Part shown: positions 1 to 19,087 of the stretch, piece after piece | How positions within the stretch are numbered: position 1 is the stretch's first letter | Layout of the letters: each line of letters begins with the position of its first letter | IMG/VR virus record: IMGVR_UViG_3300042549_007727 | DNA from: a virus | Length of the DNA stretch: 64,000 nt | Strand: one strand, 5' to 3' | Notes under the pieces: model-generated | What the model was told of the DNA's origin: nothing | Databases searched by the model: none | What the model saw: only the letters and a program-made list of their open reading frames with translations | Made by a program: the position numbers and the translations under genes

Positions 1-399
1 TCACCTAGAAGCCAATGGGACATTACTTTTATTGACAGGTATAGACCAAACATAGGTGCGTTGAGGGTGGACGACAGTTATCACAACTACCCAGAATACG
101 AGCGTCCAGTTTGGGACACACTAACAAATAAAGAGAAGTTTGATTCTCACAAGTTGGCGTTGGATTCAACCTTGAGAAAAATTATTTTGTCAAGTGATTC
201 CGAAATAGATTCAACTGGCAATAGAAAATTGACAGCCCTACAAGCCTTGAGGGTTAGAGATAACAAGCCAATCGCAGTAGAGATTACTGACGAGGACATG
301 GTTGAACTTCACATGAAGTCAAAAACTCCACAGGCAGTAATTCGCAGAATCAACAAGGTTCGTGAATCCATTTCTAGTTTCCCAGCGAAACTCGCATAA
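1..399 (+). CDS. hypothetical protein, 5'-partial (frame open to window start)
   Basis: Frame of ORF 61..399 has no stop back to position 1. Confidence 0.6.
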   Translation, partial: SPRSQWDITFIDRYRPNIGALRVDDSYHNYPEYERPVWDTLTNKEKFDSHKLALDSTLRKIILSSDSEIDSTGNRKLTALQALRVRDNKPIAVEITDEDMVELHMKSKTPQAVIRRINKVRESISSFPAKLA

Positions 400-441
400 C
401 CTAAAAATAGATACAGACACAACAAAGAAAGGGCGGAAGCC

Positions 442-1503
442 ATGTATCAACAAAAAGTAATAGCAGAACACACAGCACCAGACCTAGCAGGAATCAACTA
501 TGACCAACTGTTAGAACAACTTGTCGGGGCAGTAAGGGGTTCAAGTTTCGGAGTGACAACTTCAATTCTTGACGAACACCTAACACCAGCAGGTAGAGCA
601 ACACTACGCACTAAAGGTAAAGCAGGTTCAACACTTTCAACTCCAGCTAAACTAGATGAAGCAGAGCCAGCGAAGCTAGAGGAAGTTATGGAATCAGTTG
701 CGAACTTAGAGGGAGAGGAATCTTACTCACGACCTAATGGCGACCTTTACTATGGTCGCAAGTGGGGCGACAATGTAGATGTTGAAGTTCTACGCAAAGC
801 CAGAGAAGCAGGACAGTATGTAATGCTCTATGGAGTTCCTGGAACTGGAAAGACAGCGTGCGTTGAAGCTGCTTTTCCAGATGAACTTTACACAGTTCTT
901 GGTTCTGGCGACACCGAAGTTTCTGACTTGGTAGGTGGCTATGTCCAAACTCCAAGTGGCGGTTTTGAGTGGGTGGACGGAAGTTTAGTAAAAGCAGCTT
1001 CCGAGGGTAAAGTTCTACTGATTGACGAAATTGGTTTGATTGACCCGAAAGTTCTTTCGGTTGTCTATGGACTAATGGACGGCAGAAAAGAAATTACAAT
1101 CACACAGAATCCAGAGCGAGGCACAGTAAAAGCTAAGGAAGGATTTTTTGTAGTTTCGGCAACTAACCCTAATGTCGCAGGAGTTCGTTTGTCAGAGGCA
1201 CTTCTATCTCGTTTCGCTATTCAGGTTGAAATGACTACTGATTGGAACTTGGCTAGGAAACTTGGAGTTCCGCAGAGTGCGGTTGTTGCTTCACAGAATC
1301 TAGCAAAGAAACTAGAAAATGGTGAAACTTCTTGGTCGCCACAAATGCGAGAGTTGCTTGCGTTCCGTGACTTGTCCAAAATGTTTGGAACAAAGTGGGC
1401 AGTCCAAAACTTGCTTGCTTCCGCACCAGAGATTGACAGACCAATCGCTAGTGATGTATTCACCAGAGTATTCGGAGAGGCAATCCTGCCAGCAAAGATT
1501 TAG
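442..1503 (+). CDS. MoxR/CbbQ/NorQ-type AAA+ ATPase
   Basis: Walker A GVPGTGKT, Walker B LLIDE, ATNP sensor, LSEALLSRF Arg finger; followed by vWA gene. Confidence 0.9.
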   Translation: MYQQKVIAEHTAPDLAGINYDQLLEQLVGAVRGSSFGVTTSILDEHLTPAGRATLRTKGKAGSTLSTPAKLDEAEPAKLEEVMESVANLEGEESYSRPNGDLYYGRKWGDNVDVEVLRKAREAGQYVMLYGVPGTGKTACVEAAFPDELYTVLGSGDTEVSDLVGGYVQTPSGGFEWVDGSLVKAASEGKVLLIDEIGLIDPKVLSVVYGLMDGRKEITITQNPERGTVKAKEGFFVVSATNPNVAGVRLSEALLSRFAIQVEMTTDWNLARKLGVPQSAVVASQNLAKKLENGETSWSPQMRELLAFRDLSKMFGTKWAVQNLLASAPEIDRPIASDVFTRVFGEAILPAKI

Positions 1504-1561
1504 TGAGTGGGTTGTGTCCTCACTAAAGGGTGGGGAAACGCAAGGTTTTTTCTTGTTTGAT

Positions 1562-1590
1562 TTGACTTGCGTTTCTCCCCCAACTACTAT
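1562..1590 (+). promoter_or_regulatory. sigma70/SigA-type promoter for vWA gene
   Basis: TTGACT-N17-TACTAT, overlapping the 3' arm of an inverted repeat (GGGGAAACGCAAG / CTTGCGTTTCTCCCC). Confidence 0.6.
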
Positions 1591-1634
1591 ACAATTTAGA
1601 CATAACAAAAAAACGCCAAATGAAAGGGAAGCAA

Positions 1635-3488
1635 ATGGCACACTACAAAGTAAAAGGTAAGTCAAGACTTACAACACGAACAACTACAACCAACCCAGAG
1701 TGGCTAAGAGTTTGTTCACAGATTGGTCGCTTGGTCAATGATTGGTCATGGCGTTCAGATTTAGTTGTCTATGGTGGAGAGGATTCTGCCGAGGGCAAAG
1801 CTATCGCTGCTTTTTATTCAGACATAGCAGAGATTGAAGTGAACTTGCCGAAAGCGTTTGGAGAACTTACGCCAGCAGATTTTGTCGGCGACTTGACTAA
1901 AAAAGAAACGCAGTATGAGTATCCAATGGTGACAGGCGTTCTGTATCACGAAGCACTACACGCACGCCACACGAATTGGGACACTTCAATTTTGTCAGAG
2001 GCACTAGACCCTAATGAGCAAAGAGCTTTTATGTTGCTAGAGGAATCACGAATTGAAGCAAAGGGAATCAAAGAGCGACCAGAGCTTAGAAACTTCTTGC
2101 GTGCTTCTGCTTTAGACATGGCACTAGACGAAGTGACTACAGACACACTCGCAGGTTTGGCTAGTGATGTTTGGAATACAGCACGCCTAGCAGGACTTTC
2201 AGTTTCAAGAGTGGATTCAGGAGTTCTTGAAGTTTCTGACATTACTGACATTTACAGAGAAGTAGTTTCAGTTCTTGGTCAGGACTTGTTTGACGAACTA
2301 AGAAAAGTTTGGATTGAGTTTCAGGCACTAGGCGTTCCACAGATTGAGCGAGCTATTGAACTTGCTAAGAAGTGGGTTGAACTATTGCGTGAATCAGACC
2401 CAGAGGGCGAGCCAGATTCAGGTTCGGCAGGTGACATTTTCGGCGAGCCAGATGAATCAGAGGGCGACAGCGAGGGTGGAAGCGGAAGTGAACTGTCTGA
2501 CACCATGAAAGACATGATTGAAAAACTTTCCGAATCTGCTAGTCACTCGGAGATAGAAGCGAGAGAGGCACTTGCCCAACAAGAGCAACAAGACAAGTGG
2601 GGCGAGGAATCAAAAGCAAGGCAAGAGCAAGCAAAGAATAACAACCAACGCAAAAACATAGCCAAGCAAATCTTTCACAAGCCACACTCCCAAGAGGGTT
2701 CGGGTTCTAACTCGTCTGTATCCTCTCGCAGACAGCCGACAGGGACAGAGCGAGCAAGTGCGGTAGAGATTGCTAAGTCATTAGACAAGGCAAAGTATCG
2801 TGAGCGTTCGGTTCATGTTCGCAAAAGTCAGACACCACAGGGCAAGCTGATTATGAGAAACGCCGTCCAGAATAGGGCAGTTGAATCTATTGGCAAGCGT
2901 GGAGAGTTGCCAGCGTGGAAGTCAAAGACACGCAAGCACACAGACGACCCAACGCTAAGGCTTGGAATCATGGTGGACATTTCAGGTTCTATGGGTTCTG
3001 CTATGGAAGCTATGGGACAGACAGCGTGGATTATGTCCGAGGCAGGTCGCAGGATTCAAGCTGAAACGGCTATGGTGTATTACGGCTCTGGCGTGTTCCC
3101 AACTCTAAAGCGTGGACAGCGTTTGAGCGAGGTGACGATTTACACAGCACCAGACGGAACTGAAAAGTTTACCGAAGCGTTTGAAGCGATTGACGGCGAG
3201 CTTGGACTAACTTTTGGGGACGGCGTGCGTATGTTAGTTGTTGTGTCGGACGGAAACTACACAGGCACAGAACTACAGAGAGCAACCGAACTACTAAGAG
3301 AGTGTAAACAAAACGGCGTGGCGGTTCTTTGGATTACACCGAGAGGTTGTAATGGCATGGGGGCGAGGTCAATAATTTCTGGTTCGGCGTGGGGAGTTCA
3401 CTTGGACGACCTAGACACAACGGAGATTGCGAGGCAAGTCGGCAAGTCGGCAAGCGAAGCATTGGGTCGGGTGGGTTCACTCACCTAG
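1635..3488 (+). CDS. vWA-domain protein with N-terminal HExxH metallopeptidase-like motif (CobT-like partner of the AAA ATPase)
   Basis: HEALH motif, acidic linker, MIDAS DISGS, VVVSDG; RBS AAAGGGAAG before ATG 1635. Confidence 0.85.
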   Translation: MAHYKVKGKSRLTTRTTTTNPEWLRVCSQIGRLVNDWSWRSDLVVYGGEDSAEGKAIAAFYSDIAEIEVNLPKAFGELTPADFVGDLTKKETQYEYPMVTGVLYHEALHARHTNWDTSILSEALDPNEQRAFMLLEESRIEAKGIKERPELRNFLRASALDMALDEVTTDTLAGLASDVWNTARLAGLSVSRVDSGVLEVSDITDIYREVVSVLGQDLFDELRKVWIEFQALGVPQIERAIELAKKWVELLRESDPEGEPDSGSAGDIFGEPDESEGDSEGGSGSELSDTMKDMIEKLSESASHSEIEAREALAQQEQQDKWGEESKARQEQAKNNNQRKNIAKQIFHKPHSQEGSGSNSSVSSRRQPTGTERASAVEIAKSLDKAKYRERSVHVRKSQTPQGKLIMRNAVQNRAVESIGKRGELPAWKSKTRKHTDDPTLRLGIMVDISGSMGSAMEAMGQTAWIMSEAGRRIQAETAMVYYGSGVFPTLKRGQRLSEVTIYTAPDGTEKFTEAFEAIDGELGLTFGDGVRMLVVVSDGNYTGTELQRATELLRECKQNGVAVLWITPRGCNGMGARSIISGSAWGVHLDDLDTTEIARQVGKSASEALGRVGSLT

Positions 3489-3519
3489 ACCTAAACGGAG
3501 TGCTTGCCCAGCGGTTGAG

Positions 3520-3700
3520 CGAAAGTCAGGACTTCCCCCCTTTGACCTGATAATAGTTCCCAACGGACAAGACACTAGAAACCCCTATCAAGTGCTTCCC
3601 CCAAGTCTTGGTAGGGGTTTCGCCTTTCTCGGTTTGACGGACGAGATTGGGTGGAATCTGAATCCCTGGCACAGACTTTTTACGAAAGATGAAAAGTCAC
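3520..3700 (+). ncRNA. candidate structured 3'UTR/small RNA with C-rich loops
   Basis: Hairpins 3525-3550 (loop ACTTCCCCCC), 3578-3621 (15-bp stem, loop with CTTCCCCC), 3674-3698. Confidence 0.35.
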
Positions 3701-3723
3701 CAGCAGAAAAAGCTGACGAAGGC

Positions 3724-3794
3724 GTATCCACTTTTTATCTGGCTAAAAACTTTTTTGACAAAACACTTGCTTTTTCTGTAAACCCTGTTAGGAT
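3724..3794 (+). promoter_or_regulatory. 13-mer motif + promoter, unit 1
   Basis: GTATCCACTTTTT 3724; TGnTAGGAT -10 at 3789. Confidence 0.7.
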
Positions 3795-3844
3795 TGGAAC
3801 TATCCAATCGGAACGAAACAGAAGTAGTTCCAGAGGGGGGATTT

Positions 3845-4195
3845 ATGGCTAAGGTCATTTCCCGAACAGCCCCAGAGGTTGCGAAAGCAACTCCAAAGGT
3901 TGTCAAAGTTTCACGAAAAGTCGTGGAACTAATCAGCGAACTTTCCGAAGTTCGTGCTACATACAACTCGGCGAAAGCCAGAGTTGAGGAACTTCGTGAC
4001 GAAGTTCTTTCCCAAGTTGGGCGTTCCAATTTGACCCTTGTCCACAACAGCATTGAGGTCGCTCGTATCGTTGAGAGTTCTCCTGTGCGTGTAGATGAGG
4101 AGTTCTTGAAAGAGAACTATCCAGAGGCTTACCAAGCTTCTCTAAGGGCAAAGCCCCAACACACGATTCGCTCTGTCACACGCAAAGCGAACTAA
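3845..4195 (+). CDS. small coiled-coil phage protein, paralog of 11591..11932
   Basis: G-rich RBS; shares LxHNxIExARI and D..L....PEA[YF] with 11591 ORF. Confidence 0.8.
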   Translation: MAKVISRTAPEVAKATPKVVKVSRKVVELISELSEVRATYNSAKARVEELRDEVLSQVGRSNLTLVHNSIEVARIVESSPVRVDEEFLKENYPEAYQASLRAKPQHTIRSVTRKAN

Positions 4196-4205
4196 AGAAC
4201 TGGGC

Positions 4206-4242
4206 GGGCAGGGCGAAAGCCCTGTCCCCCATTTCATTTTTT
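4206..4242 (+). terminator. intrinsic terminator
   Basis: GGGCAGGGC-GAAA-GCCCTGTCC + T-rich tail. Confidence 0.75.
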
Positions 4243-4257
4243 ATTTGACCTGACAAT

Positions 4258-4328
4258 GTATCCACTTTTTACCAAAGGAAATGGACACGGAAAAAAGATA
4301 CCGAAAATGTCAGGGACTATGCTAAGAT
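4258..4328 (+). promoter_or_regulatory. 13-mer motif + promoter, unit 2
   Basis: Motif 4258; TGCTAAGAT extended -10 (hexamer at 4323). Confidence 0.7.
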
Positions 4329-4357
4329 TGGAACTACCACAAAGAAAGGGGAACACC

Positions 4358-4708
4358 ATGAGAGGCGAGCCATTAGAGCTTGACGAAGTTGCTGGATTAT
4401 CTCTAACAGTATTGGGCGTGCTTGTTGAGGCATACATCAAAGAGGGATACAGCGACCCGACAATGTATAGAGCAATACGGGCTTCAACCGAACTGGCTAA
4501 AAACTTCAAGGCACGGCTAGAACTAGACGGACGGGACACGGACGGCGTGGACGACTTGATTACTAACCTAGAGCTAACGGCTATGGAATCTGGCGAGGTA
4601 GTAAACCGAATCATAGAGCAGAACGGCTGGCAAGAAACGGCTGGCGAGTGGAGTAGCCCTGCTAGTATGACTTGTGATAACGACTGCGAACATGACGGCA
4701 AGGAGTAG
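4358..4708 (+). CDS. hypothetical protein
   Basis: RBS AAAGGGGAA before ATG 4358. Confidence 0.7.
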   Translation: MRGEPLELDEVAGLSLTVLGVLVEAYIKEGYSDPTMYRAIRASTELAKNFKARLELDGRDTDGVDDLITNLELTAMESGEVVNRIIEQNGWQETAGEWSSPASMTCDNDCEHDGKE

Positions 4709-4715
4709 GGACGGC

Positions 4716-5015
4716 ATGGACTTTCAGACTGCGTTCGGCGAGGTTGTGCGTGAGCAACGGCGTGCTAATGAGATTACAATGCGAAGCGTGACGGATAGGG
4801 GACACCTAGCGTTGGGATACCTGTCCGAAGTGGAACGGGGACACAAAATGCCCTCTAGCCTAATAATTGCGTCCATAGCAGACGGACTGGGTATAGACGC
4901 AAGCGAGCTGATTATTCAGACGGGTATGCGTATGTCCAATGTTCCTGAAAGCCCTGAAAGCCTGTTCAAGCTAAGGGACAGAGATTGGGCTAATCAGTAT
5001 TCAGATTTGAGATAG
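4716..5015 (+). CDS. XRE-family HTH regulator, ClgR-like
   Basis: GEVVREQR...LALGYLSEVERGHKMPSS resembles the actinobacterial ClgR signature SLGYLSEVERGxKExSS. Confidence 0.8.
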   Translation: MDFQTAFGEVVREQRRANEITMRSVTDRGHLALGYLSEVERGHKMPSSLIIASIADGLGIDASELIIQTGMRMSNVPESPESLFKLRDRDWANQYSDLR

Positions 5016-5020
5016 AGAAA

Positions 5021-5052
5021 GCCCCCCTGACAAAAGTTAGGGGGATTTTTTC
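5021..5052 (+). terminator. intrinsic terminator
   Basis: CCCCCCTGAC-AAAA-GTTAGGGGGA + T tract. Confidence 0.75.
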
Positions 5053-5064
5053 TTGGCTGGTAGT

Positions 5065-5123
5065 GTATCCACTTTTTGCTGAACATTTTTTGTTTGGTTT
5101 TTGTCGGGGGTAGGGTATAGGAT
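5065..5123 (+). promoter_or_regulatory. 13-mer motif + promoter, unit 3
   Basis: Motif 5065; TTGTCGG element; TAGGAT at 5118. Confidence 0.65.
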
Positions 5124-5162
5124 TTGATTGTTATAAAAACTCCAACAGGAAAGTAGGGGAAA

Positions 5163-5399
5163 TTGAGTTATTATCCAGAGGGTTCTATGGCTGGTTCTGG
5201 CATAGATTCCGTAGAAGTTCCGTATGACGAGTTTGTCTGCGAAGCTGACGATTGTGGCAAGGTGAACGAAGCTAGTGAAGCTATGACAGACGACTATGGC
5301 AATTACGAAGTTGAGTGCCAGTTCTGCGGTAGCTTTTACTTTAGAAGTTCTATTGCCGAGGACAAGGCAGATTGGGCAGCGAATAATTATGATTACTAA
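5163..5399 (+). CDS. small acidic Zn-ribbon protein
   Basis: TTG start after AGGGGA; CEADDC and CQFC. Confidence 0.7.
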   Translation: MSYYPEGSMAGSGIDSVEVPYDEFVCEADDCGKVNEASEAMTDDYGNYEVECQFCGSFYFRSSIAEDKADWAANNYDY

Positions 5400-5556
5400 T
5401 CCAAAACAGGGGACACCAATAAAAAACAGCAAGGGCGAATTACGATACGAATACACTTGCCCGAAGTGTTTTGACGAATACAGGGTGGACGAAAAGACAC
5501 ACGCTTGGATTCAGACCTTAGACAGACTGCCTAAGTGTTCGCCTTGCTACTTGTAG
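5389..5556 (+). CDS. small Zn-finger protein
   Basis: CPKC...CSPC; ATG overlaps end of upstream gene. Confidence 0.6.
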   Translation: MITNPKQGTPIKNSKGELRYEYTCPKCFDEYRVDEKTHAWIQTLDRLPKCSPCYL

Positions 5557-5627
5557 CCTAAAAAGTTTCCCCCGAATAATCAGGAACAGCGATTCCGATT
5601 CGGGGGATTTTTTTATGCCGTCAATGT

Positions 5628-5697
5628 GTATCCACTTTTGCTGCGGCAGGGTAAAACTTTTTATGTGCGGTGAAAAGTCGTAGGTAGGTGATAGTAT
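5628..5697 (+). promoter_or_regulatory. motif variant + promoter, unit 4
   Basis: GTATCCACTTTTG 5628, after hairpin 5568-5613; TGATAGTAT -10 at 5692. Confidence 0.65.
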
Positions 5698-5739
5698 TCA
5701 AGTATCAAGCAACACTAACCACGAACAAAGGGGAACAAG

Positions 5740-6051
5740 TTGAAAAGATTGCCTAACTACAAGATTGGCGCGGAGATTAGTGCGCTAAACACTTTCACGA
5801 ACTACAATGGCACAATTAGCGCCGTTCGGGACGAGAATAATTACAGGATTACACACTGGAACACTGTAATTCTTGATTACAACACTGACACCAACGAGAT
5901 TATTTCGCTACAAGATAGCTACATTAGCCAGACAACCAGCGCGCTAGTTGGGCGAATCTTGAGGGCGTTGCCATACGCTTCGGTTGAAAGATACTTGGGC
6001 TACATGACGCCGTCAAAAGATAAGCGCCGTTTGGTCGGTATGCTTCGATAA
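5740..6051 (+). CDS. hypothetical protein
   Basis: TTG start after AAAGGGGAA; followed by terminator CCCCGC-TTCG-GCGGGG. Confidence 0.75.
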   Translation: MKRLPNYKIGAEISALNTFTNYNGTISAVRDENNYRITHWNTVILDYNTDTNEIISLQDSYISQTTSALVGRILRALPYASVERYLGYMTPSKDKRRLVGMLR

Positions 6052-6121
6052 AAAGCCAAAAAGTTAGCCCCGCTTCGGCGGGGTTTTCTTTTTCCGTGAA
6101 AAGTTGCGCCGGTCGCGGCGT

Positions 6122-6170
6122 GTATCCACTTTTTGATGAAAGCTTTTTGCGGATCCTTGATCTGTATAAT
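6122..6170 (+). promoter_or_regulatory. 13-mer motif + promoter, unit 5
   Basis: Motif 6122; TATAAT at 6165. Confidence 0.7.
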
Positions 6171-6192
6171 TGTTGATGAAGGGGGAACACCA

Positions 6193-6507
6193 TTGAATAA
6201 TTTCTCAGAGCGAATCATTGCCAATACCGAAGATGGACGCCGTGAAGTGCGCGTCCTGCGTCTTGCGGTAAGTCTTGGCGACGACTTGGCATACATTGAT
6301 TGGGAGCCAAGCGGGGAGCTTTACTTTATCAAAGTCCCCGTCGAGTATCGCCGTCAAGGAATCGCTACAAAGCTATGGCAGGACGCTCAGGAACACGCGA
6401 GAAGCTTGAACTTGCCCGCGCTAACCCATAGCGAATACAGAACTGACGCGGGCGATTCTTGGGCTAAGTCCCTAGGCGAAAAACTTCCACCAAGAATCCG
6501 CGCTTAG
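6193..6507 (+). CDS. GNAT-family acetyltransferase-like protein
   Basis: Acetyl-CoA-binding motif A: VPVEYRRQGIATKL; TTG start after GGGGGAA. Confidence 0.7.
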   Translation: MNNFSERIIANTEDGRREVRVLRLAVSLGDDLAYIDWEPSGELYFIKVPVEYRRQGIATKLWQDAQEHARSLNLPALTHSEYRTDAGDSWAKSLGEKLPPRIRA

Positions 6508-6523
6508 TTTTTTGTAGCCAGGT

Positions 6524-6594
6524 GTATCCACTTTTTGACGAGGCGACACGCTTGCTTGCGGGTTCTTGCTTTTGTCGGTGGGTTGGGGTAAAGT
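6524..6594 (+). promoter_or_regulatory. 13-mer motif + promoter, unit 6
   Basis: Motif 6524; TTTGTCGG; TAAAGT at 6589. Confidence 0.65.
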
Positions 6595-6626
6595 CAAACT
6601 AACCAAGCAAGAGGGAAGGAAACAAA

Positions 6627-6842
6627 ATGATTGGTAGAAACAAAGATGCGGAAACAGCTTTTGATATGGCAATGAAGTTGCTGAACAACCCAAGTGAGGA
6701 AGTTCAACAGCAAGTCTGGGACAAGTGCCACGCTGACGAAGTAATCCAAAGGTCGGTAAGGCTTTACCTTTACAGCGAGCCAAGCTACACACCAAAGGCT
6801 CTATACAACCTTCACCAAAAACTCGCCGAGTTGGTGTCCTAA
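6627..6842 (+). CDS. hypothetical protein
   Basis: RBS GAGGGAAGGA, ATG. Confidence 0.7.
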   Translation: MIGRNKDAETAFDMAMKLLNNPSEEVQQQVWDKCHADEVIQRSVRLYLYSEPSYTPKALYNLHQKLAELVS

Positions 6843-6991
6843 TGGTTGTTCGCCCGCTGGAGAATACAGTTTGCTATCAATGCCCTAAGAAGATTATGGC
6901 AATGGTTGGTGCGGTTCACCCGCTATGCGTTGAGTGTCAAGAAAGTTTTGACGATTGGTTTGAACACGAGCTAGGAGTTTTCAATGGCTAA
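6842..6991 (+). CDS. 49-aa Zn-finger protein (below ORF-track cutoff)
   Basis: MVVRPLENTVCYQC...LCVECQ; TAATG coupling with upstream gene. Confidence 0.6.
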   Translation: MVVRPLENTVCYQCPKKIMAMVGAVHPLCVECQESFDDWFEHELGVFNG

Positions 6992-7187
6992 GCAAGTTTA
7001 TTTTGTTGTTGCGGTGGACTTAGATGAGTGCGTGCCGTTTATAGATGATGACACCTTTACAGCAAGGTTCAGTTCGGCAGAGCAAGTTTGGGACACCGAA
7101 CTACAAGAGTGGCAAGAAGACCCTGACCAAGAGTTTTACGATAAAGCGTTGAAGATTTTGAACACCATACCTTTAGCGAAAGACTAG
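6984..7187 (+). CDS. hypothetical acidic protein
   Basis: RBS AGGAG, overlaps upstream gene. Confidence 0.7.
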   Translation: MAKQVYFVVAVDLDECVPFIDDDTFTARFSSAEQVWDTELQEWQEDPDQEFYDKALKILNTIPLAKD

Positions 7188-7190
7188 TCA

Positions 7191-7502
7191 ATGAAACACA
7201 AAAAGAGTAAAGTTCAAGGCAAGTCTAGGCACGCCGAGTATCTTCGCCGAGTAGATAACGCCGATAGAGTTGCGGTAATGCTAAGGGGCATAACTTTATT
7301 TTGCGCTTTTATTTTTGTAATGAGGATAGTCGCTGGCGTTGATTCAGTTTCAGAATACCTAATCCTTTATGCGGTTGTGTTTGTGGGCGGGGTTAGTGCT
7401 TCGCTTGCCGAATACTTTTTGTTTAGGGCTTACCAAAGTCGCTACTCAAAAAGTCGCCGACAAAGTTTTTGGGATTTGTTCAACACCGAACTTTCCAAAT
7501 AA
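7191..7502 (+). CDS. membrane protein (2 TM)
   Basis: Two hydrophobic segments, basic termini. Confidence 0.7.
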   Translation: MKHKKSKVQGKSRHAEYLRRVDNADRVAVMLRGITLFCAFIFVMRIVAGVDSVSEYLILYAVVFVGGVSASLAEYFLFRAYQSRYSKSRRQSFWDLFNTELSK

Positions 7503-7506
7503 AACT

Positions 7507-7544
7507 TCCCGCTAGGACTTCCCCCCTAGCGGGATTTTCTCTTT
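7507..7544 (+). terminator. intrinsic terminator with ACTTCCCC loop
   Basis: TCCCGCTAGG-ACTTCCCC-CCTAGCGGGA + T tract. Confidence 0.8.
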
Positions 7545-7552
7545 CCAGCTGC

Positions 7553-7612
7553 GTATCCACTTTTTGATAGAGATTTTTTTGTGTGCGTTTTGTCGGTGGA
7601 CTATGCTATGGT
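7553..7612 (+). promoter_or_regulatory. 13-mer motif + promoter, unit 7
   Basis: Motif 7553; TTTTGTCGG; TGCTATGGT -10 at 7607. Confidence 0.7.
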
Positions 7613-7640
7613 TGAAGTATCCAAACAAAGGGGAAGTAAA

Positions 7641-7832
7641 TTGAAGACAGATTCAAGAATAGCAATAGTTTCAGAGCTACCAAACTGCGACTTCTGCGGT
7701 GAACACGCTCGCTATGACGGAGCAACCAAACTTGGACCTTGGGCTTTTATGTGCCAGAAGGACTGGGTATCTCACGGAGTAGGGCTTGGGCTTGGCAAAG
7801 GTCAAGTTCTAATGAAGGAAGGAACTAAGTAA
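7641..7832 (+). CDS. small Cys-containing phage protein
   Basis: TTG start after AAAGGGGAAG; CDFC...YDG.T..GPWAFMC...GLGLGKGQ. Confidence 0.7.
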   Translation: MKTDSRIAIVSELPNCDFCGEHARYDGATKLGPWAFMCQKDWVSHGVGLGLGKGQVLMKEGTK

Positions 7833-8033
7833 ATGGCGACAACAGTTGGAGAGCTGATTGAACAGCTAAAGACGCTGGACCCCGACACAACAGTTGTGTT
7901 TCAGTATTTGACACACGAACACACCGACTTTTCAATTGACGATTTTGAGTCAAAAGCCGAGGCACTTGACTACACCAACTTCGCTGATGAAATGTCTATC
8001 ACGATGAACGAGTGGCTCGCCGAAATGGAGTAG
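7833..8033 (+). CDS. hypothetical protein
   Basis: TVGELIEQLKTLDPD N-terminus common in small phage proteins. Confidence 0.7.
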   Translation: MATTVGELIEQLKTLDPDTTVVFQYLTHEHTDFSIDDFESKAEALDYTNFADEMSITMNEWLAEME

Positions 8034-8102
8034 CCACGCGACACCAAAGATTCCCCCGCGACCCCCGCGGGGGTTTTCTTTTTTGCCGGAAGGTAGCCAG
8101 GT

Positions 8103-8176
8103 GTATCCACTTTTTGATTCGGCTGCCGAAAGGGTTTTGTAAAAGTATTTGCTTTTTTCTTTTTGTGTAGTAAGAT
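8103..8176 (+). promoter_or_regulatory. 13-mer motif + promoter, unit 8
   Basis: Hairpin 8053-8073 upstream; motif 8103; TTGCTT 8149 and TAAGAT 8171. Confidence 0.65.
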
Positions 8177-8204
8177 GAAACTCTAACGAAAGGGAGGTTC
8201 CTAA

Positions 8205-8597
8205 ATGGGAGCAAGAACAACTTGGAAAATAAAGACTAATGATTCGGGAGCTATTACTTGGCTTTACAGTCATTGGGGAGGCGACAGTAAGTTTGACACC
8301 ACTAAAGAGGCGTTGGACTTGGCTATGCCTCGCTGGGAGGATAGGACTTATGGAGCTAGGATTTTTATCAGTAGCGTAATTGGTAATTCTTGGAGTTCAC
8401 AGACAGGGTTTGGAATTACTTCAACCCTTGACACAGATTCCAACCCGTTTGAGGAAAGCTACACGCCTTACACAATTGACTTTGTGCGGAAAGTAGTGAT
8501 TCTTGAAGGTGTTCTCGGAGAGGACTGGGAGTTAGGCTTTGACGAGTTCACTAGACTAAACAGCGAAGCCGACTTGCTACTTCAAGGGACAAGGTAA
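8205..8597 (+). CDS. hypothetical protein
   Basis: RBS GGGAGG; LYSHWGG motif. Confidence 0.75.
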   Translation: MGARTTWKIKTNDSGAITWLYSHWGGDSKFDTTKEALDLAMPRWEDRTYGARIFISSVIGNSWSSQTGFGITSTLDTDSNPFEESYTPYTIDFVRKVVILEGVLGEDWELGFDEFTRLNSEADLLLQGTR

Positions 8598-8879
8598 ATG
8601 GGAAACTTACAAGCTCAAGAAATTGCGAGCAACACCGAAATTACACTTGAACAGCAACTAACTTGGCACTTACAAGGTAATCACTATCCACCGATTCCAG
8701 TTAGTATGGTTCAGCCTTGTGTTGAAGCAATTCAGGCTTATTGGGAAGATGAGCTAGACACGGAGATTCAGTTGCCCGAAGGTGTTTTGTATCGGGGGAA
8801 GGAAACAGCCCCCGCTAGAGAAATAATCATCAATCATCACTTAGACGCTTGGTGTCAAGATGACGAAGATGAGTTTTAG
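8598..8879 (+). CDS. hypothetical protein
   Basis: Abuts upstream gene; WHLQGNHYPP...HHLDAW. Confidence 0.75.
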   Translation: MGNLQAQEIASNTEITLEQQLTWHLQGNHYPPIPVSMVQPCVEAIQAYWEDELDTEIQLPEGVLYRGKETAPAREIIINHHLDAWCQDDEDEF

Positions 8880-8905
8880 GATTAGCCCCAACTAACCCCC
8901 CAAAT

Positions 8906-8949
8906 GCGGGCAATAGAGAGATTCCCCCTTTCTATTGCCCGTTTTCTTT
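8906..8949 (+). terminator. intrinsic terminator with ATTCCCC loop
   Basis: 15-bp stem GCGGGCAATAGAGAG / CTTTCTATTGCCCGT + T tract. Confidence 0.8.
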
Positions 8950-8962
8950 GCGTGCCGGTAAG

Positions 8963-9033
8963 GTATCCACTTTTTACTGGGCTTGATTTTCTTTTTATGA
9001 AATACTTGTTTTTCTTTGTTAGTGTGTTATTGT
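8963..9033 (+). promoter_or_regulatory. 13-mer motif + promoter, unit 9
   Basis: Motif 8963; TGTTATTGT -10 at 9028. Confidence 0.65.
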
Positions 9034-9082
9034 TTATCTGTTGGGAAGTTCCCGACAAGAAACAAGAAAGTTGGGCAGAGAA

Positions 9083-9310
9083 GTGAAGTTTGTAATTAGG
9101 AGAGCAGTCTTAGGGTTGGTGGCTTTGCCAGTAATCGCTGGGACTTATGTTTTTATGTTTGTATTGCTAGGTTCGCTAAACAATACTTTATGGGGACTAA
9201 CCCTAGATGAAGTTTGGAATAACGGACTTTTGATTGGTTCGGTTAGTGCGGTTGCTTTCGCTTTCGCAACTCAGATTGACAAGCTAATTGCTAGATTGGT
9301 TGGTGAATAA
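9083..9310 (+). CDS. membrane protein (2 TM)
   Basis: GTG start; two hydrophobic segments. Confidence 0.65.
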   Translation: MKFVIRRAVLGLVALPVIAGTYVFMFVLLGSLNNTLWGLTLDEVWNNGLLIGSVSAVAFAFATQIDKLIARLVGE

Positions 9311-9444
9311 TGACTATCATTGTAATCAACCTAGACGGCTCAAGAACGCCTTACGGCTATTCGGCTCACTCATCAGACATCACCGATTACTATGACCGCC
9401 TAGTTGCGGAAAATAGAATCACCGCCTATGAGGTGATTTCCTAA
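9310..9444 (+). CDS. 44-aa hypothetical protein
   Basis: TAATG coupling at both ends. Confidence 0.55.
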   Translation: MTIIVINLDGSRTPYGYSAHSSDITDYYDRLVAENRITAYEVIS

Positions 9445-9590
9445 TGGGAGATTTTATTCTATTAGCGTTTGCTATCGGACTTATCTTTGGTGGCTTTACT
9501 CTTATGTTTTACAGTTTACTAACTGTAAAAAGAGATAACTACCGACCGAAGCATACACGCTCAACATACCTGCCCAACAGGAAAAGATAG
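9444..9590 (+). CDS. 48-aa single-TM protein
   Basis: MGDFILLAFAIGLIFGGFTLMFYSLL + basic tail; RBS GAGG. Confidence 0.55.
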   Translation: MGDFILLAFAIGLIFGGFTLMFYSLLTVKRDNYRPKHTRSTYLPNRKR

Positions 9591-9667
9591 TTCCCCCAAC
9601 TATCGGAAAGCCCTCGCCTTTGTGCGGGGGTTTTCTTTTTTCTGTTTTTTTTTTCTGACGAGAGCTG

Positions 9668-9728
9668 GTATCCACTTTTTGATGGAAGTTTTTTCGGCTT
9701 CCGTTTTGTCGGGCATTTATGCTAGTGT
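9668..9728 (+). promoter_or_regulatory. 13-mer motif + promoter, unit 10
   Basis: Motif 9668; TTTTGTCGG; TGCTAGTGT -10 at 9723. Confidence 0.7.
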
Positions 9729-9756
9729 TAGAGCTACCAATTAGAAAGGTTATCAA

Positions 9757-9924
9757 ATGGGAAAGTTAGTTGCAGAGCTAGGAACAAAAAAAGTCTTATC
9801 TCTAGTTGAAGGCGAAACAACAGTTTCGGCTTACTTACTCACGGAGAGTGAAGAGTTTCTTGCTGTCCTAAAGAGTGCCGACAGTCTAGAGCAGGTTCTA
9901 GATTGGGTAGAAGAAAACTACTAG
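9757..9924 (+). CDS. 55-aa hypothetical protein
   Basis: RBS GAAAGG; MGKLVAELGTKKVLSLVEGE... Confidence 0.6.
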   Translation: MGKLVAELGTKKVLSLVEGETTVSAYLLTESEEFLAVLKSADSLEQVLDWVEENY

Positions 9925-9935
9925 GAAGGTAGAAA

Positions 9936-10286
9936 ATGAAATTAGCTCTAAAGATAACGCCAGATGGCGTAGCAACTGAAATTGACATAGCCACGGACGA
10001 ATTGAAGAAACTACAAGACGCGGTTGATGGTCTAATTCAACCCGTTGATTTTGAGTTCGGCTCTAGGTATTTGACAATGTGGGTGAATGAAGAAGGACTA
10101 CTTAGAAACGATTTGGAAATGAATCCTGTCGCCTTTCTGTTTTACTCTTCACCGATAATGGGAAACATTATCATAACTGGCGCGCCAGATGAAGATGGCG
10201 AAACAACAAGCCTAGACAGCGCGACAGAGTTAGATGTTCTAAAAAGGATTTGTGAAAAGTTCCTAAGTTCTGTTGAACAAGTCTAA
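9936..10286 (+). CDS. DUF3846-like protein
   Basis: LQDAVDGLIQPV...MWVNEEGL...N..A...GNIIITG pattern. Confidence 0.65.
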   Translation: MKLALKITPDGVATEIDIATDELKKLQDAVDGLIQPVDFEFGSRYLTMWVNEEGLLRNDLEMNPVAFLFYSSPIMGNIIITGAPDEDGETTSLDSATELDVLKRICEKFLSSVEQV

Positions 10287-10359
10287 ATAAAAAACTAAAG
10301 CAACCCCGCCTTTGCGCGGGGTTTCTTTTTATCTTCCGTAAAAAGTCTGCCGTCAACTG

Positions 10360-10421
10360 GTATCCACTTTTTGATGCCTCTCTTAGTTGCGGTTGCTTTT
10401 TTCTTGCGTTTGTGTTATCTT
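10360..10421 (+). promoter_or_regulatory. 13-mer motif + promoter, unit 11
   Basis: Hairpin ~10303-10330; motif 10360; TGTTATCTT -10 at 10416. Confidence 0.65.
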
Positions 10422-10458
10422 GATTTGGCTTATAGCAACACTTAGTAGAAAGAGAAAA

Positions 10459-11397
10459 ATGAAAAGACAAATTAGTATCGCGCTCGCGGTGGCATTGCTT
10501 GCCGTTGGGACTACCCCCGCTAGCGCTGGAGTTCAAGGTGAAGTTAGTTCTTGGGGTCTAGATAGAGTAGACCAAACAGCGGGAACAGCAACACTAGATA
10601 GAAGCTACAAATACCCCGACAGCGCTGGCGCTGGAGTTCGCGTGTATGTTTTAGACACGGGAGTTCTTGGAACGCTACCTGGTTTCGGCGGGAGAGTTCT
10701 TACAGGGTTTGACACTCTCGCGGGACTTAGAACGCCACATCAGGCTAATCTTGACTGTAATGGTCATGGAACAGCCGTAGCTGGAATCATTGCTAGCGCG
10801 ACTTATGGAGTAGCTAAGAGCGCAACCATTGTGCCAGTTCGCGTTGCGGACTGTAAAGGTGGAATAGTTCCTGCCAACATTGTCAAGGGAATTGACTGGA
10901 TAATCAAGAATCACCCGCGCGGTACCCCTGCCGTTGTGAATCTAAGTATCGCGGTTGGTAAGACTAAGTTGGTTGATGACGCGATTACAAAACTCTACGG
11001 GATTGGTATAGTTTCAGTAGTTTCCGCTGGTAATCAAAACATAGACGCTTGTCGTCTAAGCCCCGCGGGAGCAACATACGCCCTTACCGTTGGGTCTATA
11101 AACATGAACGACCAAAGAACAAATACTTCTAACTTTGGCGAGTGTGTTTCTATGTACGCCCCTGGTGGTTTGATTACTACCGAGGGAACAAATGGTTTGC
11201 CCTCAACAAGAAGCGGAACATCTTTTTCCGCGCCTCATGTTGCTGGAGCAATAGCCTTGTATCTTTCAAGCAACCCTAAGGCAGACGCCCCCGCGACTGT
11301 TTGGGAGATTACAAGAAATGGTTTGAGTGGAGCTGTTGCTGACGCTAAGAGCGTTAGAGGCAATGTTCTACTCAACACCGCCTTTCTAAACAAGTAA
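10459..11397 (+). CDS. secreted subtilisin-like S8 serine protease (proteinase K/aqualysin-like)
   Basis: Signal peptide ending ASA; WGLDRVDQ; catalytic D (YVLDTG), H (GHGT), S (SGTSFSAPHVAG). Confidence 0.92.
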   Translation: MKRQISIALAVALLAVGTTPASAGVQGEVSSWGLDRVDQTAGTATLDRSYKYPDSAGAGVRVYVLDTGVLGTLPGFGGRVLTGFDTLAGLRTPHQANLDCNGHGTAVAGIIASATYGVAKSATIVPVRVADCKGGIVPANIVKGIDWIIKNHPRGTPAVVNLSIAVGKTKLVDDAITKLYGIGIVSVVSAGNQNIDACRLSPAGATYALTVGSINMNDQRTNTSNFGECVSMYAPGGLITTEGTNGLPSTRSGTSFSAPHVAGAIALYLSSNPKADAPATVWEITRNGLSGAVADAKSVRGNVLLNTAFLNK

Positions 11398-11456
11398 GCA
11401 ATAAGCAAAGACCCCCTGCCGTAATTGGCGGGGGGTTTTTTGCTAGCTGAAGGCGT

Positions 11457-11527
11457 GTATCCACTTTTTGACCTGTTGAAAAAACTTTTGCGGAATTGCT
11501 TGTTTTATCGGATTAGTATGCTATGAT
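11457..11527 (+). promoter_or_regulatory. 13-mer motif + promoter, unit 12
   Basis: Terminator ~11411-11441; motif 11457; TGCTATGAT -10 at 11522. Confidence 0.7.
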
Positions 11528-11590
11528 GATTACATCATCAAAAGATGATAATCCAAGCAACAAAAGCAACACCTAACAAAGGGGAATAAG

Positions 11591-11932
11591 TTGACAACAT
11601 CAACAACAACCGCAACAACAACCGCAACCAAGGCAACAAAAGTTGTTCTAGGACAAGTTCGGGAATTGACTGAGGTTAGGGCAGAAATTGCCAGACTGGA
11701 AAAACTAAAGTTGGCTCTCACCGCTGAAATTGAAAAGGCTTTTGAGGTTGACAAAGAAGCAAAGACCTCACGCTTTTCAACCCTTACTCACAATGCCATA
11801 GAGTTCGCAAGAATTGACTGGAGAAGCCGTAAGGGTATTGACTCAGAGAAGTTAGCCCTAGAGTTTCCTGAAGCGTTTGAGGCTTGCCAGAAGCCAACTG
11901 TTTACTCAGTAATAGTTTCCTTGTTCAAGTAA
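11591..11932 (+). CDS. small coiled-coil phage protein, paralog of 3845..4195
   Basis: TTG start after AAAGGGGAA; LTHNAIEFARI...IDSEKLALEFPEAF. Confidence 0.8.
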   Translation: MTTSTTTATTTATKATKVVLGQVRELTEVRAEIARLEKLKLALTAEIEKAFEVDKEAKTSRFSTLTHNAIEFARIDWRSRKGIDSEKLALEFPEAFEACQKPTVYSVIVSLFK

Positions 11933-12007
11933 AAGGGAGAGAGAAGCCCCCGCCGAAAGGTTGGGGGCTTTTCTTTTGCCAAAAAGTTTTACGGCGACTC
12001 GCGGGCT

Positions 12008-12079
12008 GTATCCACTTTTTGATTAGTCTTCCAGGTGTATCACGGGCTTAGGCTTTTTGTCTGTGGCAAATAGTATGCT
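12008..12079 (+). promoter_or_regulatory. 13-mer motif + promoter, unit 13
   Basis: Terminator ~11945-11977; motif 12008; TAGTAT/TATGCT at 12071/12074. Confidence 0.6.
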
Positions 12080-12135
12080 AATGATTACTAGCCAATTGGT
12101 TAGTAGTTGGGCAACAATTATTAGTTTGGAGAATC

Positions 12136-12339
12136 ATGAACATTAGTTCAGATACAAGGTCAACGCAAGAGTTGACTGTTGCGCTTATGGCACTAAACAC
12201 TACAACCCTTATTCCAACTGGATACGGGGTATCTCAGGACTGTGCAACAGCTATTGAGTTCTTGAAGCAACGCTCAGAACAGATGGCTAATGTTGCTAAG
12301 GAAATTGAGAAGCTACTAGGGGGAGTTCACCGTGGCTAA
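12136..12339 (+). CDS. hypothetical protein
   Basis: RBS GGAG. Confidence 0.65.
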   Translation: MNISSDTRSTQELTVALMALNTTTLIPTGYGVSQDCATAIEFLKQRSEQMANVAKEIEKLLGGVHRG

Positions 12340-12571
12340 GTTTGTAATCACTAATGGCAGAGTTGGTAATGACAACGGTAATCAGCAATTTGTAGAACAC
12401 GCCTATTATCACCCTATGGGCAGGAAAGCCCTATTGAACAAGATTCAAGACCTAGCTAATAGAAGCGGATTAGAGTCTTGGGCAGAGCTATACACGGAAT
12501 GGAAAGATGAGAATAGGACTGGCAAAACACCGAATCGAATCTTCCCTAGAAAGCCGTATTCAACTTACTAA
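12332..12571 (+). CDS. hypothetical protein
   Basis: GTG start, RBS GGGGAG. Confidence 0.65.
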   Translation: MAKFVITNGRVGNDNGNQQFVEHAYYHPMGRKALLNKIQDLANRSGLESWAELYTEWKDENRTGKTPNRIFPRKPYSTY

Positions 12572-12592
12572 CTAGATACCTCAGTAAGTAAT

Positions 12593-12623
12593 GACCCCCT
12601 AGCTATACGGTTGGGGGGTCTTT
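12593..12623 (+). terminator. intrinsic terminator closing the early array
   Basis: GACCCCCTAGC-...-GTTGGGGGTC-TTT. Confidence 0.75.
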
Positions 12624-12719
12624 GCTATGCGGTATGCGGTTGAATAGTTTGGATTCATGAATGCTTGATCATGCGGATAGCAAAAACAATTATTGAATTA
12701 GTTTTTTGATAGATCAGGT

Positions 12720-13240
12720 TGACCCCCCCATGAAATAAGCCAAAAATAATTAGCGGGCGGGCGGGCATACCCCCCTCAGAAACTTATAGTTAGTAATAAA
12801 CTTACTTAGGTCTTTTCTAGTTCTTTCAGCTAGCCCTCATAGACGCCCCCCTGTAAGCCTCACTAGAAAGACACCCAACTTGGACAGCTAATGCTAGACG
12901 CCCCCTCAGAGTAGTAGTCATAGATTCTAAAGTCATGACCCCCTAAGAAAGACAACCTTGTCTTGTAAAGTTCTTAGTAATCTAGTATCCTTGACAATAG
13001 ATAGTAATTTTTATTTTTCTAGCTTGAAGCAAGGACTAATTTTTATAAAGAACAATTTTGTATGGCGTATTCAACAAGAATTGTTTTTGGAAGACCCCTT
13101 CACTTTTAGGAAACAATTTTGAAGTCCTTCAATTTCATACGGCTACCCTCTCACCCGTCAAAAGCAGTAGACGCTAAGGTACTAATTCTTCCGTTACGGA
13201 CACCCCCCTCTTTTTAAAAAACGCAATTACCCCCTGCCCC
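12720..13240 (+). repeat. non-coding region with repeated GAC(G)CCCCC / C-tract motifs
   Basis: C-tract motifs near 12721, 12769, 12842, 12897, 12937, 13093, 13199, 13229; no ORF. Confidence 0.6.
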
Positions 13241-13322
13241 AAAACGACAAAAAATCCGGAAAAAATTTTTCAAAAAAATTCGTCCAATAGCCCGATATCT
13301 ACATAGTGCTAAAATGTACCTT

Positions 13323-13832
13323 ATGCCCCGTAGAACAGCGCGAAGTCAGCCGCTACCCCCAGCCGAAGTTGAGTACCTAAACTCGCTTACAATAAACGCC
13401 CTTATCCCGAGAGTCAACGCACTGTATAACGCAGGGTGGGCGCTTCAAGCCATCGGGGAATGCCTATCCCCTAGACGCCCTAGATCCACGGTTCGCAGCT
13501 GGGTAGTTAAGTCTGCTGAGCTTGGGGCCCAAGAAGCAGTAGACGCCCCTACCCTCCCATCTCCTGTACATAAAACAGCAGCCGATGGGTATCAGAAACG
13601 CCGCCCTACATCTCCAGGTATCCCTGAGGACACTTTTGACGAGATTAGGTCCTTAGCGCCCCTAGCACGCTCCTACAGGGCCAAAATGGCCCAAACTAGC
13701 TCTGCGGCCGTAGCAAACCGCAGATTGACTGATATTTGCGCCAAATTGCACGAAAATGGCGTAGGAATAAGGGAATTAGCCGAGGCAGCAGGAGTAACAT
13801 ACCGCGCTATGTACAAGAGAATTAAGCTTTAA
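13323..13832 (+). CDS. double-HTH DNA-binding protein
   Basis: GWALQAIG and GVGIRELAEAAGVTYRAMYKRI; probable leaderless start 7 nt after TAAAAT. Confidence 0.7.
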   Translation: MPRRTARSQPLPPAEVEYLNSLTINALIPRVNALYNAGWALQAIGECLSPRRPRSTVRSWVVKSAELGAQEAVDAPTLPSPVHKTAADGYQKRRPTSPGIPEDTFDEIRSLAPLARSYRAKMAQTSSAAVANRRLTDICAKLHENGVGIRELAEAAGVTYRAMYKRIKL

Positions 13833-14051
13833 TCTCGATTTGACATCCTAAATCCGACACAATAGGGTTTTTGACGTGGTAAAATATTAACCGGAGAGCA
13901 CGTTCTTTCAATAAAAGGAAGGATGTGCTTTTTGGCATCTCTGGACATTTTGTGTTAGAGTGCAACCCACAACTGAATATGGAAAGAAAACCAAATAGAA
14001 CACTAAACGACCGAGTACTAAAGTATTCACTTCTGAAAGGTAGGTCGCTAA

Positions 14052-14804
14052 ATGCATAAGAGGTTCATTTCAATAAGTGCGATAGCACTAGTAATGACTG
14101 GCTCCACCGCAGCGTTCGGACAGATGTTAGAGTCCACCACCGCTGCGTCAGAACAAACATTAGTAACACAAGTAACAAAACCGGCTGAAATAATTGATTC
14201 TCCTGTACAAAAGGTAGAAATTGTTTCCGGCCCTGCTGTATCACCCGAGATTGCTGCGGGCCCTGTCCTAAAGTCAAGCGCACCGATCATTGGGTCGTAC
14301 GACTGGATGGCCCAGGAAAAAGCTGCAAAAGAAGCTCTCATGTCTGATGCTGAAAAAGTGCAAGCAGAACTAGAGGCAGAAATTGCTCGGCTAGAAAAAA
14401 TCGCCTCTGACACCAAAGCCCTAAACGAGGCTCTTGTCTTGGTTAAAAAACAAATTGGCATCACCCCTTGGGTTTTTCAGGGGTCAAGCCCCCGCGCCTG
14501 GGACTGCTCGGGTCTTGTAAAATGGACCTACGCCCAGCTTGGGATAGACCTGTATCACAGTGCCACATGGCAAAGATACTGGGGCGAGATTGTAGCCGAA
14601 CCTAAAATTGGAGACCTAGTGTCTTTCAATTACAAAAACTACTCAAGCGCCTACCATATTGGGATCTACGTTGGTCCTGATGAGATGATCCACGCTGGCG
14701 GTAAGCCAGGAGATAGGGCCGAAATAATCTCTATCAGCGAATGGGCAAAAGACAATTCGAATAGTGAAGTCATCTACACCCGACTAATTGAAACTAACAA
14801 CTAG
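14052..14804 (+). CDS. NlpC/P60 (C40) peptidoglycan endopeptidase with signal peptide
   Basis: WDCSGLV catalytic Cys, YHIGIY His, MIHA; N-terminal signal and coiled coil. Confidence 0.9.
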   Translation: MHKRFISISAIALVMTGSTAAFGQMLESTTAASEQTLVTQVTKPAEIIDSPVQKVEIVSGPAVSPEIAAGPVLKSSAPIIGSYDWMAQEKAAKEALMSDAEKVQAELEAEIARLEKIASDTKALNEALVLVKKQIGITPWVFQGSSPRAWDCSGLVKWTYAQLGIDLYHSATWQRYWGEIVAEPKIGDLVSFNYKNYSSAYHIGIYVGPDEMIHAGGKPGDRAEIISISEWAKDNSNSEVIYTRLIETNN

Positions 14805-14815
14805 TTAGGACGAGA

Positions 14816-14846
14816 GGCCCCTCCTTCGGGAGGGGTTTTTCTCTTT
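14816..14846 (+). terminator. intrinsic terminator
   Basis: CCCCTCC-TTCG-GGAGGGG-TTTT. Confidence 0.85.
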
Positions 14847-14921
14847 AAATTTGACTTGACAAACAAAATCATATACATTAGTGTTTAGTCAAGCATCACC
14901 CAAATAGAGAAAAGAGACAAA

Positions 14922-15179: not shown

Positions 15180-15221
15180 TCCTGCCTTGCGCATACGACT
15201 AGATTGTGATAGTATAAAGCC

Positions 15222-15563: not shown

Positions 15564-15567
15564 AATA

Positions 15568-16022: not shown

Positions 16023-16035
16023 GGTATTGACCACA

Positions 16036-16590: not shown

Positions 16591-16600
16591 GGAGCAACAA

Positions 16601-16969: not shown

Positions 16970-16988
16970 AGTAGGGTAAACTACCTAC

Positions 16989-18398: not shown

Positions 18399-18401
18399 AA
18401 T

Positions 18402-19073: not shown

Positions 19074-19087
19074 GGCAGGGAGCCCCT

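Follow-up and report, generated by a model that had tools for sequence, protein, structure and literature searches.

Why would a phage keep most four-base palindromes out of one stretch of its genome and leave the remainder full of them? The question is raised by 64,000 nucleotides of viral DNA from IMG/VR virus record IMGVR_UViG_3300042549_007727 (the window, meaning the whole stretch analysed), which opens with a long array of small genes, called here the block. Within window positions 1-12620, nine four-base palindromes (ACGT, GGCC, TTAA, TGCA, ATAT, GTAC, GATC, TCGA and CCGG) occur 13 times in all, while about 360 copies are expected when their frequency in the remaining window is scaled to this length. 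The depletion is thus real and very strong. The explanation that we favour, with a probability of about 0.6, is that the block is an early segment to which restriction avoidance is confined: like the leading segments of phages T5 and T7, it would meet the host enzymes before the phage has disarmed them.

To answer the question, we tallied all 16 four-base palindromes in 2-kilobase (kb) bins and listed their positions. Between positions 1 and 12600, ACGT, GGCC and TTAA are absent altogether, and the other six are reduced to scattered copies: one ATAT (6664), two GATC (6152, 6159), two GTAC (10922, 11154), two TGCA (9771, 12243), three TCGA (6045, 6341, 12535) and three CCGG (6109, 8086, 8955). 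Past 13.3 kb, each of the nine words is present at 2-16 copies per 2 kb, and scaling from positions 13301-64000 gives 26-63 expected copies per word in the block, with Poisson P values from 2e-8 to 5e-28. Four palindromes were kept, AATT (50 copies in 1-12600), AGCT (54), CTAG (62) and CATG (18), and two, TATA and CATG, are reduced to about half. CGCG and GCGC are absent from most of the block and frequent in two regions of it, 5628-6523 and 9668-11456. These counts bear out every coordinate given in an earlier note on this DNA, which had reported none of a list of four-base palindromes, CGCG and GCGC included, in the first ~5.7 kb (the first CGCG/GCGC lie at 5768/5769), no TTAA, GGCC or ACGT before ~13.2 kb (their first copies are at 13214, 13526 and 13874), and frequent copies of all the missing words from there on. 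They also amend it in two places: CATG, which it had counted with AATT, AGCT and CTAG among the common words, does remain but is about halved, and its list of missing words left out ATAT, one of the nine that are purged, and held CGCG and GCGC despite the two regions in which they are frequent.

The losses are highly selective. When all 136 strand-merged 4-mers are ranked by observed/expected ratio under a dinucleotide model, the nine words take the nine bottom places (at most 0.11, the next being 0.45). Longer words are affected as well. Six-base palindromes with allowed 4-mer cores number 30 in the block, against ~61 expected from a maximal-order Markov model or ~88 from the rate of the remaining window, and the interrupted palindromes GCNGC, GGNCC, CCNGG and GTNAC are depleted too. 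For five-letter words, we tested 476 that are all free of the nine 4-mers, taking known enzyme sites from Biopython's REBASE-derived enzyme table. Such sites make up 8% of the tested words, yet 11 of the 25 most depleted (hypergeometric P=3.9e-7). The depleted 5-mers include GTCTC, GGATG, GCATC, GAGTC, GCAGC, GAAGA and CTCAG, and take in the sites of BsmAI, FokI, SfaNI, PleI, BbvI and MboII, type IIS enzymes among them. Asymmetric enzyme words are lost in both orientations, and it follows that the reader of these words acts on duplex DNA, not on RNA. In the same table, 14 of the 16 palindromic 4-mers have an enzyme and two, ATAT and TATA, have none; ATAT is purged although it has none.

Protein coding does not account for the deficit. 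When 24 block proteins were held fixed and their synonymous codons redrawn from the block's own usage, 17-31 copies per word were predicted, ~223 in total for the coding part, which in fact has 11; reshuffling 19 late genes in the same way revealed no deficit. No Met-Gln or Met-His dipeptide, either of which would make TGCA unavoidable, is found in the block. The proposal that restriction words are the target of selection, already made in the earlier note, therefore withstands the codon control, the loss of both orientations, the enrichment in enzyme sites and the comparison of orthologues, whose word sets differ (see below). In fact, these results support a purge by selection on duplex DNA against restriction-type words.

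Where does the purge begin and end? An exact-protein look-up placed the window at positions 50363-114362 of a 117,691-base-pair (bp) contig of the Joint Genome Institute (JGI; source sample 3300043436) and supplied 9.6 kb of upstream sequence (L099). The block does not start at window position 1, as had been assumed, but 1,407 nucleotides before it on the source contig, where the left edge of the full purge lies. On the right, the sharp switch placed earlier at ~12.6-13.3 kb is found: the purge stops at the terminator of the last cassette, the spacer behind it is intermediate, and full site density is back from ~13.3 kb. Thus, observed/expected counts give both a significant depletion and a discontinuity near 13 kb, and the purge is sharp on both sides, with edges sharp to ~100 bp.

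These edges are also those of a gene array. The 13-mer motif GTATCCACTTTTT heads each of 15 cassettes and is found nowhere outside the block. Every copy sits 3' of a terminator, and a promoter-like site and a strong ribosome-binding site follow ~50-70 nucleotides further on. The left edge lies ~140 nucleotides before the first copy, and the final cassette is headed by the last one, so that the purge and the cassette array are coextensive. Terminator-like sites number 44 in the block where 17.7 are expected, 2.5 times the value of shuffled sequence. As a single co-oriented array of promoter/terminator cassettes, the block looks like an early module, and the oriented GTATCCACTTTTT copies, together with the relatives' own versions of the motif, suggest that a phage-specific DNA-binding factor controls the array.

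Is this an oddity of one genome? More than 590 IMG/VR contigs carry relatives of the portal protein, and the same abrupt switch is found 5-9 kb upstream of the portal gene in many relatives (12 loci besides the genomes G001 and G002). In the complete 153.7-kb G002, the block is 13.7 kb long and also lacks AATT and AGCT, while TCGA, CATG, CTAG and GCGC are allowed. In G001 (125.8 kb), a 30-kb block lacks 14 of the 16 palindromes, CTAG and TATA alone remaining, and GATC is absent from all 125.8 kb. Both have array motifs confined to their blocks, TGTATTCGTTTTTTC with 31 forward and 9 reverse copies in G001 and GTATTTATTTTTTCTG with 15 copies in G002. ATAT is purged in every block examined. Orthologues of the ATPase and VWA genes that head the block display four different palindrome repertoires in four relatives, the VWA partners being 42-51% identical in protein sequence; the same gene pair with four repertoires shows selection in place, specific to each lineage. 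Avoidance is not always regional: DSL-LC01, a published metagenome-assembled relative with a genome of 129 kb, has no ATAT and no TTAA over its first 100 kb, where ~266 of each are expected. Together with G001, this indicates that the lineage uses genome-wide avoidance for one or two words and block-limited avoidance for many. The purge is thus a conserved, position-specific trait of a large uncultured lineage of freshwater actinophages, with lineage-specific word sets. As for the host, the capsid protein matched 740 phage records, in which the tallied organisms or hosts are actinobacterial, mainly Mycobacterium, Gordonia and Microbacterium, and a WhiB gene is present; we infer that the host is an actinobacterium. 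No T5-like phage stands among the capsid matches listed, so structural-gene homology does not place this virus in the Demerecviridae.

To explain these results, we propose that the block is an early gene array of the host-takeover type that would have been rewritten, mostly by context-dependent synonymous codon choice, until it held almost no type II or type IIS recognition words. This segment would be exposed to host endonucleases ahead of any phage protection, and the other ~110 kb, with their thousands of sites, would stay out of reach until block products neutralise restriction. The list of missing words would then mirror, in negative, the restriction specificities that the phage encounters among its hosts. 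If the hosts do hold enzymes for the purged words, something must keep the bulk DNA apart from them, temporally or spatially, until the block products act. Delayed entry, as in T5 and T7-like phages, is the known way of doing so, which is why we favour a leading segment of their kind. The simplest route would be a two-step entry as in T5, or a slow, transcription-linked entry as in T7-like phages, in which the block would go in first. The block could also be a long terminal repeat that assemblies have collapsed. In fact, the nearest cultured relative, Gordonia phage GodonK (L105/L106), has an exact 7,581-bp direct terminal repeat in which genes 1-19 equal genes 227-245, showing that long terminal repeats occur in the wider group.

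Several observations weigh against this explanation. The GodonK repeat is unpurged and has no genes in common with the block; the block sits in the middle of its 117.7-kb contig; and G002, being a circular assembly, has no readable ends. DSL-LC01 shares the gene order and the cassette array and lacks the regional purge, which makes the purge optional in the lineage. Scans of the block proteins with Pfam, PHROGs and PADLOC recognised no known anti-restriction family, and in these annotations (the A1 and A2 sequences themselves were not directly compared) no block protein falls in the T5 A1 or A2 family. Finally, modification pathways of an unfamiliar kind may protect the bulk DNA.

That last point leads to what we consider the strongest, though still unlikely, alternative, in which the bulk of the virion DNA is covalently modified or methylated and the block alone is not, so that it has to avoid sites whatever the order of entry; it might be left unmodified to be readable by host RNA polymerase or to escape modification-dependent nucleases. 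This would explain how ~110 kb can tolerate thousands of sites, and candidate genes do exist: the window encodes a GT2 glycosyltransferase (59887-60954), and DSL-LC01 encodes methyltransferases, a TauD-type dioxygenase and glycosyltransferases. Yet DSL-LC01, the richest in such genes, is the very relative without a regional purge, and no known mechanism spares a stretch of 14-30 kb. Moreover, complete block-bearing relatives have no genes for C5 or Dam-type methylases, the thymidylate-synthase family or TGT/DpdA, and a single N6/N4 methylase was found, in one of three relatives' records. This scarcity may be read as indirect support for a sheltering of the bulk DNA. We find it somewhat less probable still that the block is a pool of cassettes exchanged freely among phages and hosts, whose avoidance would sum up a history of past hosts and be independent of entry time. 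Avoidance does vary by cassette, with CGCG and GCGC kept in the two regions named above, and no other part of the genome varies as much as the block, at whose edge relatives' assemblies often break. What such a pool does not account for is that the cleanest part is the conserved ATPase and VWA core, which is not exchangeable cargo and is purged differently in each lineage, or that avoidance stops at the array edges and leaves the rest of the genome, which meets the same hosts, unpurged.

The words could also be those at which nucleases of the phage itself, encoded in the block, degrade host DNA; the block would avoid them in order to survive while the remaining genome is still outside, as Davison proposed for T5 A1 (bioRxiv 10.1101/866236). 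Such nucleases would yield lineage-specific word sets, and they too would need staged entry. Nonetheless, we regard this as improbable: many nucleases would be needed to cover at least 9-14 palindromic and about 8 asymmetric specificities, the block encodes three proteins longer than 200 amino acids and none of them is nuclease-like, and the genome-wide loss of single words (GATC in G001, ATAT and TTAA in DSL-LC01) fits host enzymes better. Almost no weight remains for the idea that there is no selection on sites at all, only a mutational, compositional or expression-linked codon bias in early genes. The strand skews of the block are indeed somewhat different from those of the remaining window. 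A compositional artefact is contradicted, however, by the 4-mer statistics (losses are limited to palindromes and known enzyme words, all other 4-mers staying at an observed/expected ratio of at least 0.45), by the normal counts that the block's own codon usage predicts, and by orthologues that differ in their word sets. We therefore retain the leading-segment explanation as the best account of the block.

The coordinates of the block, its genes and its surroundings are collected in Table 1. The pair formed by the MoxR-type ATPase and its VWA partner is conserved as the opening pair of the block in all relatives, even in DSL-LC01, which is not purged. About 20 small block proteins belong to no known family, a Megablast search of the block against cultured phages gave no match, a 49-mer looked up exactly in IMG/VR gave none either, and a literature search on DUF3846 returned nothing useful. 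Six small proteins (5187-5399, 6984-7187, 7833-8033, 8598-8879, 9757-9924 and 9936-10286) have isoelectric points (pI) of ~4.1 and contain 19-24% Asp plus Glu, a composition like that of DNA-mimic restriction inhibitors, to which no homology was found. The two CGCG/GCGC-rich regions, 5628-6523 and 9668-11456, also hold most of the block's few forbidden words; they are probably recent imports whose rewriting is incomplete.

Outside the block, the ~3 kb to its left (L099:5000-8152, window -4559 to -1407) lack only GATC, ATAT and TTAA, with ~10-15 copies of each expected, and keep the other palindromes. Avoidance may be present here at a second, weaker level, or the segment may be an import from a relative that avoids GATC, ATAT and TTAA genome-wide. 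Further upstream, a lysis cassette with CHAP and peptidoglycan-binding domains is richer in G+C and in palindromes. In all four genomes compared, the lysis region just upstream of the block is G+C-richer and enriched in CCGG, GGCC and GATC, the opposite of the block. On the right, the spacer contains at least eight C-rich GAC(N)CCCCC repeats, and its segment 13104-13287 is 72-87% identical in relatives; the spacer is 0.7 kb long here, 1.45 kb in G001 and ~270 bp in G002. Nine of 26 examined IMG/VR contigs of relatives terminate within the ~1.1 kb homologous to it. These contig ends scatter over ~1 kb, as would be expected if assemblies broke in a variable region, and we do not take them for a mapped terminus. 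G003 was checked at its second end for a continuation of the block; there is none there, and the contig simply breaks inside its block. Beyond the spacer, the terminase and portal genes are followed by capsid and tail genes. Among relatives, CCGG is absent from ~21.7-kb stretches of L001 and L079. Of the blocks of L001, L009, L027, L056 and other relatives, none avoids CTAG, and several are enriched in it 2-4 times, that of L056 with 53 copies against 24 expected.

Table 1. Positions of the purged block, its array and the features around it (window coordinates unless a source is given).
Feature	Position	Strand	Remarks
Palindrome-purged block	1..12620, continuing 1,407 nucleotides upstream; total ~14.0 kb	+ (all genes)	word counts, codon control
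MoxR-type AAA_5 ATPase	442..1503	+	conserved first large gene of block
ATPase partner, 622 amino acids	1620..3488	+	HEALH motif at residue 110 (zincin-like); VWA-type DISGS motif at residue 453
GTATCCACTTTTT array	13 copies, 3724..12020	all +	one copy ends in G
Two further GTATCCACTTTTT copies upstream	L099:8294, L099:9225
HTH_3 DNA-binding protein (predicted)	4692..5015	+
Two leaky cassettes: 103-amino-acid open reading frame and GNAT acetyltransferase (6133-6507)	5628..6523	+	CGCG/GCGC plus TCGA, CCGG, GATC
DUF3846 protein	9936..10286	+	acidic, pI 4.1
Subtilisin-like S8 protease	10420..11397	+	cassette CGCG/GCGC-rich, holds the block's only two GTAC
Terminator hairpin of last cassette	12593..12620	+	right edge of purge
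Non-coding spacer	12621..13313	.	intermediate site density (6 sites)
Start of unpurged structural module	13314..20836	+
Large terminase subunit	16989-18398	+	unpurged structural module
Portal protein	19088-20836	+	unpurged structural module
Lysis region in the four genomes	L099:3000-5000; G002 146-150 kb; G001 46-50 kb; G003 last 2 kb

What would a leading segment of this kind mean? If we are right, a sequence signature alone would identify the first-exposed DNA of phages that have never been cultured and, hence, the location of their anti-defence genes. The ~25 small block proteins, six of them very acidic, would be the first places to look for new restriction inhibitors. Genome entry in two steps or with a delay would be known not only from T5 in Escherichia coli but also from actinobacterial phages. 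The missing words would give a culture-free readout of the restriction specificities active in natural freshwater bacterial populations, including candidate new enzymes. A bolder version, which we offer tentatively and would on balance bet against, is that a widespread lineage of freshwater actinophages independently evolved a T5-like two-stage delivery, and that their leading 14-30 kb are a complete negative imprint of the restriction repertoire of an uncultured host population. In that case, the lists of missing words, which differ by lineage, could serve as host or strain fingerprints and would predict undescribed specificities, notably for ATAT.

How does the block compare with systems already described? 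Our literature search turned up no account of a block with sharp limits from which most four-base palindromes and type IIS words are missing and whose extent is that of a motif-tagged cassette array. The principle is known, from T5 and T7-type phages and, for genome-wide avoidance, from textbooks; what is new is how many words are lost, how sharp the edges are and how the word sets differ by lineage. In T5, an EcoRI site or a CRISPR (clustered regularly interspaced short palindromic repeat) target matters only if it lies in the DNA transferred in the first step (bioRxiv 10.1101/866236). Like T5, a Tequintavirus with a ~10-kb terminal repeat, the present phage is a large siphovirus (~120-150 kb) in which a distinct segment of ~10-14 kb carries small early genes and lacks restriction sites that the remaining genome tolerates. 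The spacer with its C-rich repeats may be a counterpart of the repeat-rich non-coding stretch at the inner edge of the T5 segment. Unlike T5, it shows no sequence relationship to that phage, its capsid matches all being actinophages, and no A1 or A2 homologues were recognised in the annotation scans. The purge is also far broader here, taking in type IIS words and 9-14 of the 16 four-base palindromes, where the evidence considered for T5 concerns EcoRI.

For T7-like phages, it is the location of a Type I motif that decides sensitivity, only motifs in the leading region having an effect (PMC12455610). Motif avoidance there concerns a first-entering, variable early region rich in anti-defence genes, as is proposed for the block, and the predicted early promoters of our block are co-oriented, as would be compatible with transcription-linked entry. 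The differences lie in virus family and genome size, in the Ocr-type gene that was not recognised here, and in the many 4- and 5-bp type II words lost instead of one Type I motif. A further likeness, one of sequence architecture alone, is to Bacillus phage SPO1, whose host-takeover module, reported by Stewart and colleagues in 1998, lies in a 13-kb terminal redundancy. In both, about 13 kb of small early genes are divided into many short units that encode small proteins, every unit having a strong promoter and a terminator to itself (predicted ones in the block). All SPO1 DNA is protected by hydroxymethyluracil, and we know of no report of regional site avoidance in SPO1. Avoidance of restriction sites (palindromes) across whole genomes is known in phages, as Rusinov et al. 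2018 (PMC6286503) is cited for in PMC8594841. The block resembles this familiar avoidance in that enzyme words are under-represented relative to composition, and its relatives practise the genome-wide form for one or two words. It departs from it in being regional, with edges sharp to within about a hundred base pairs, and in striking most four-base palindromes together.

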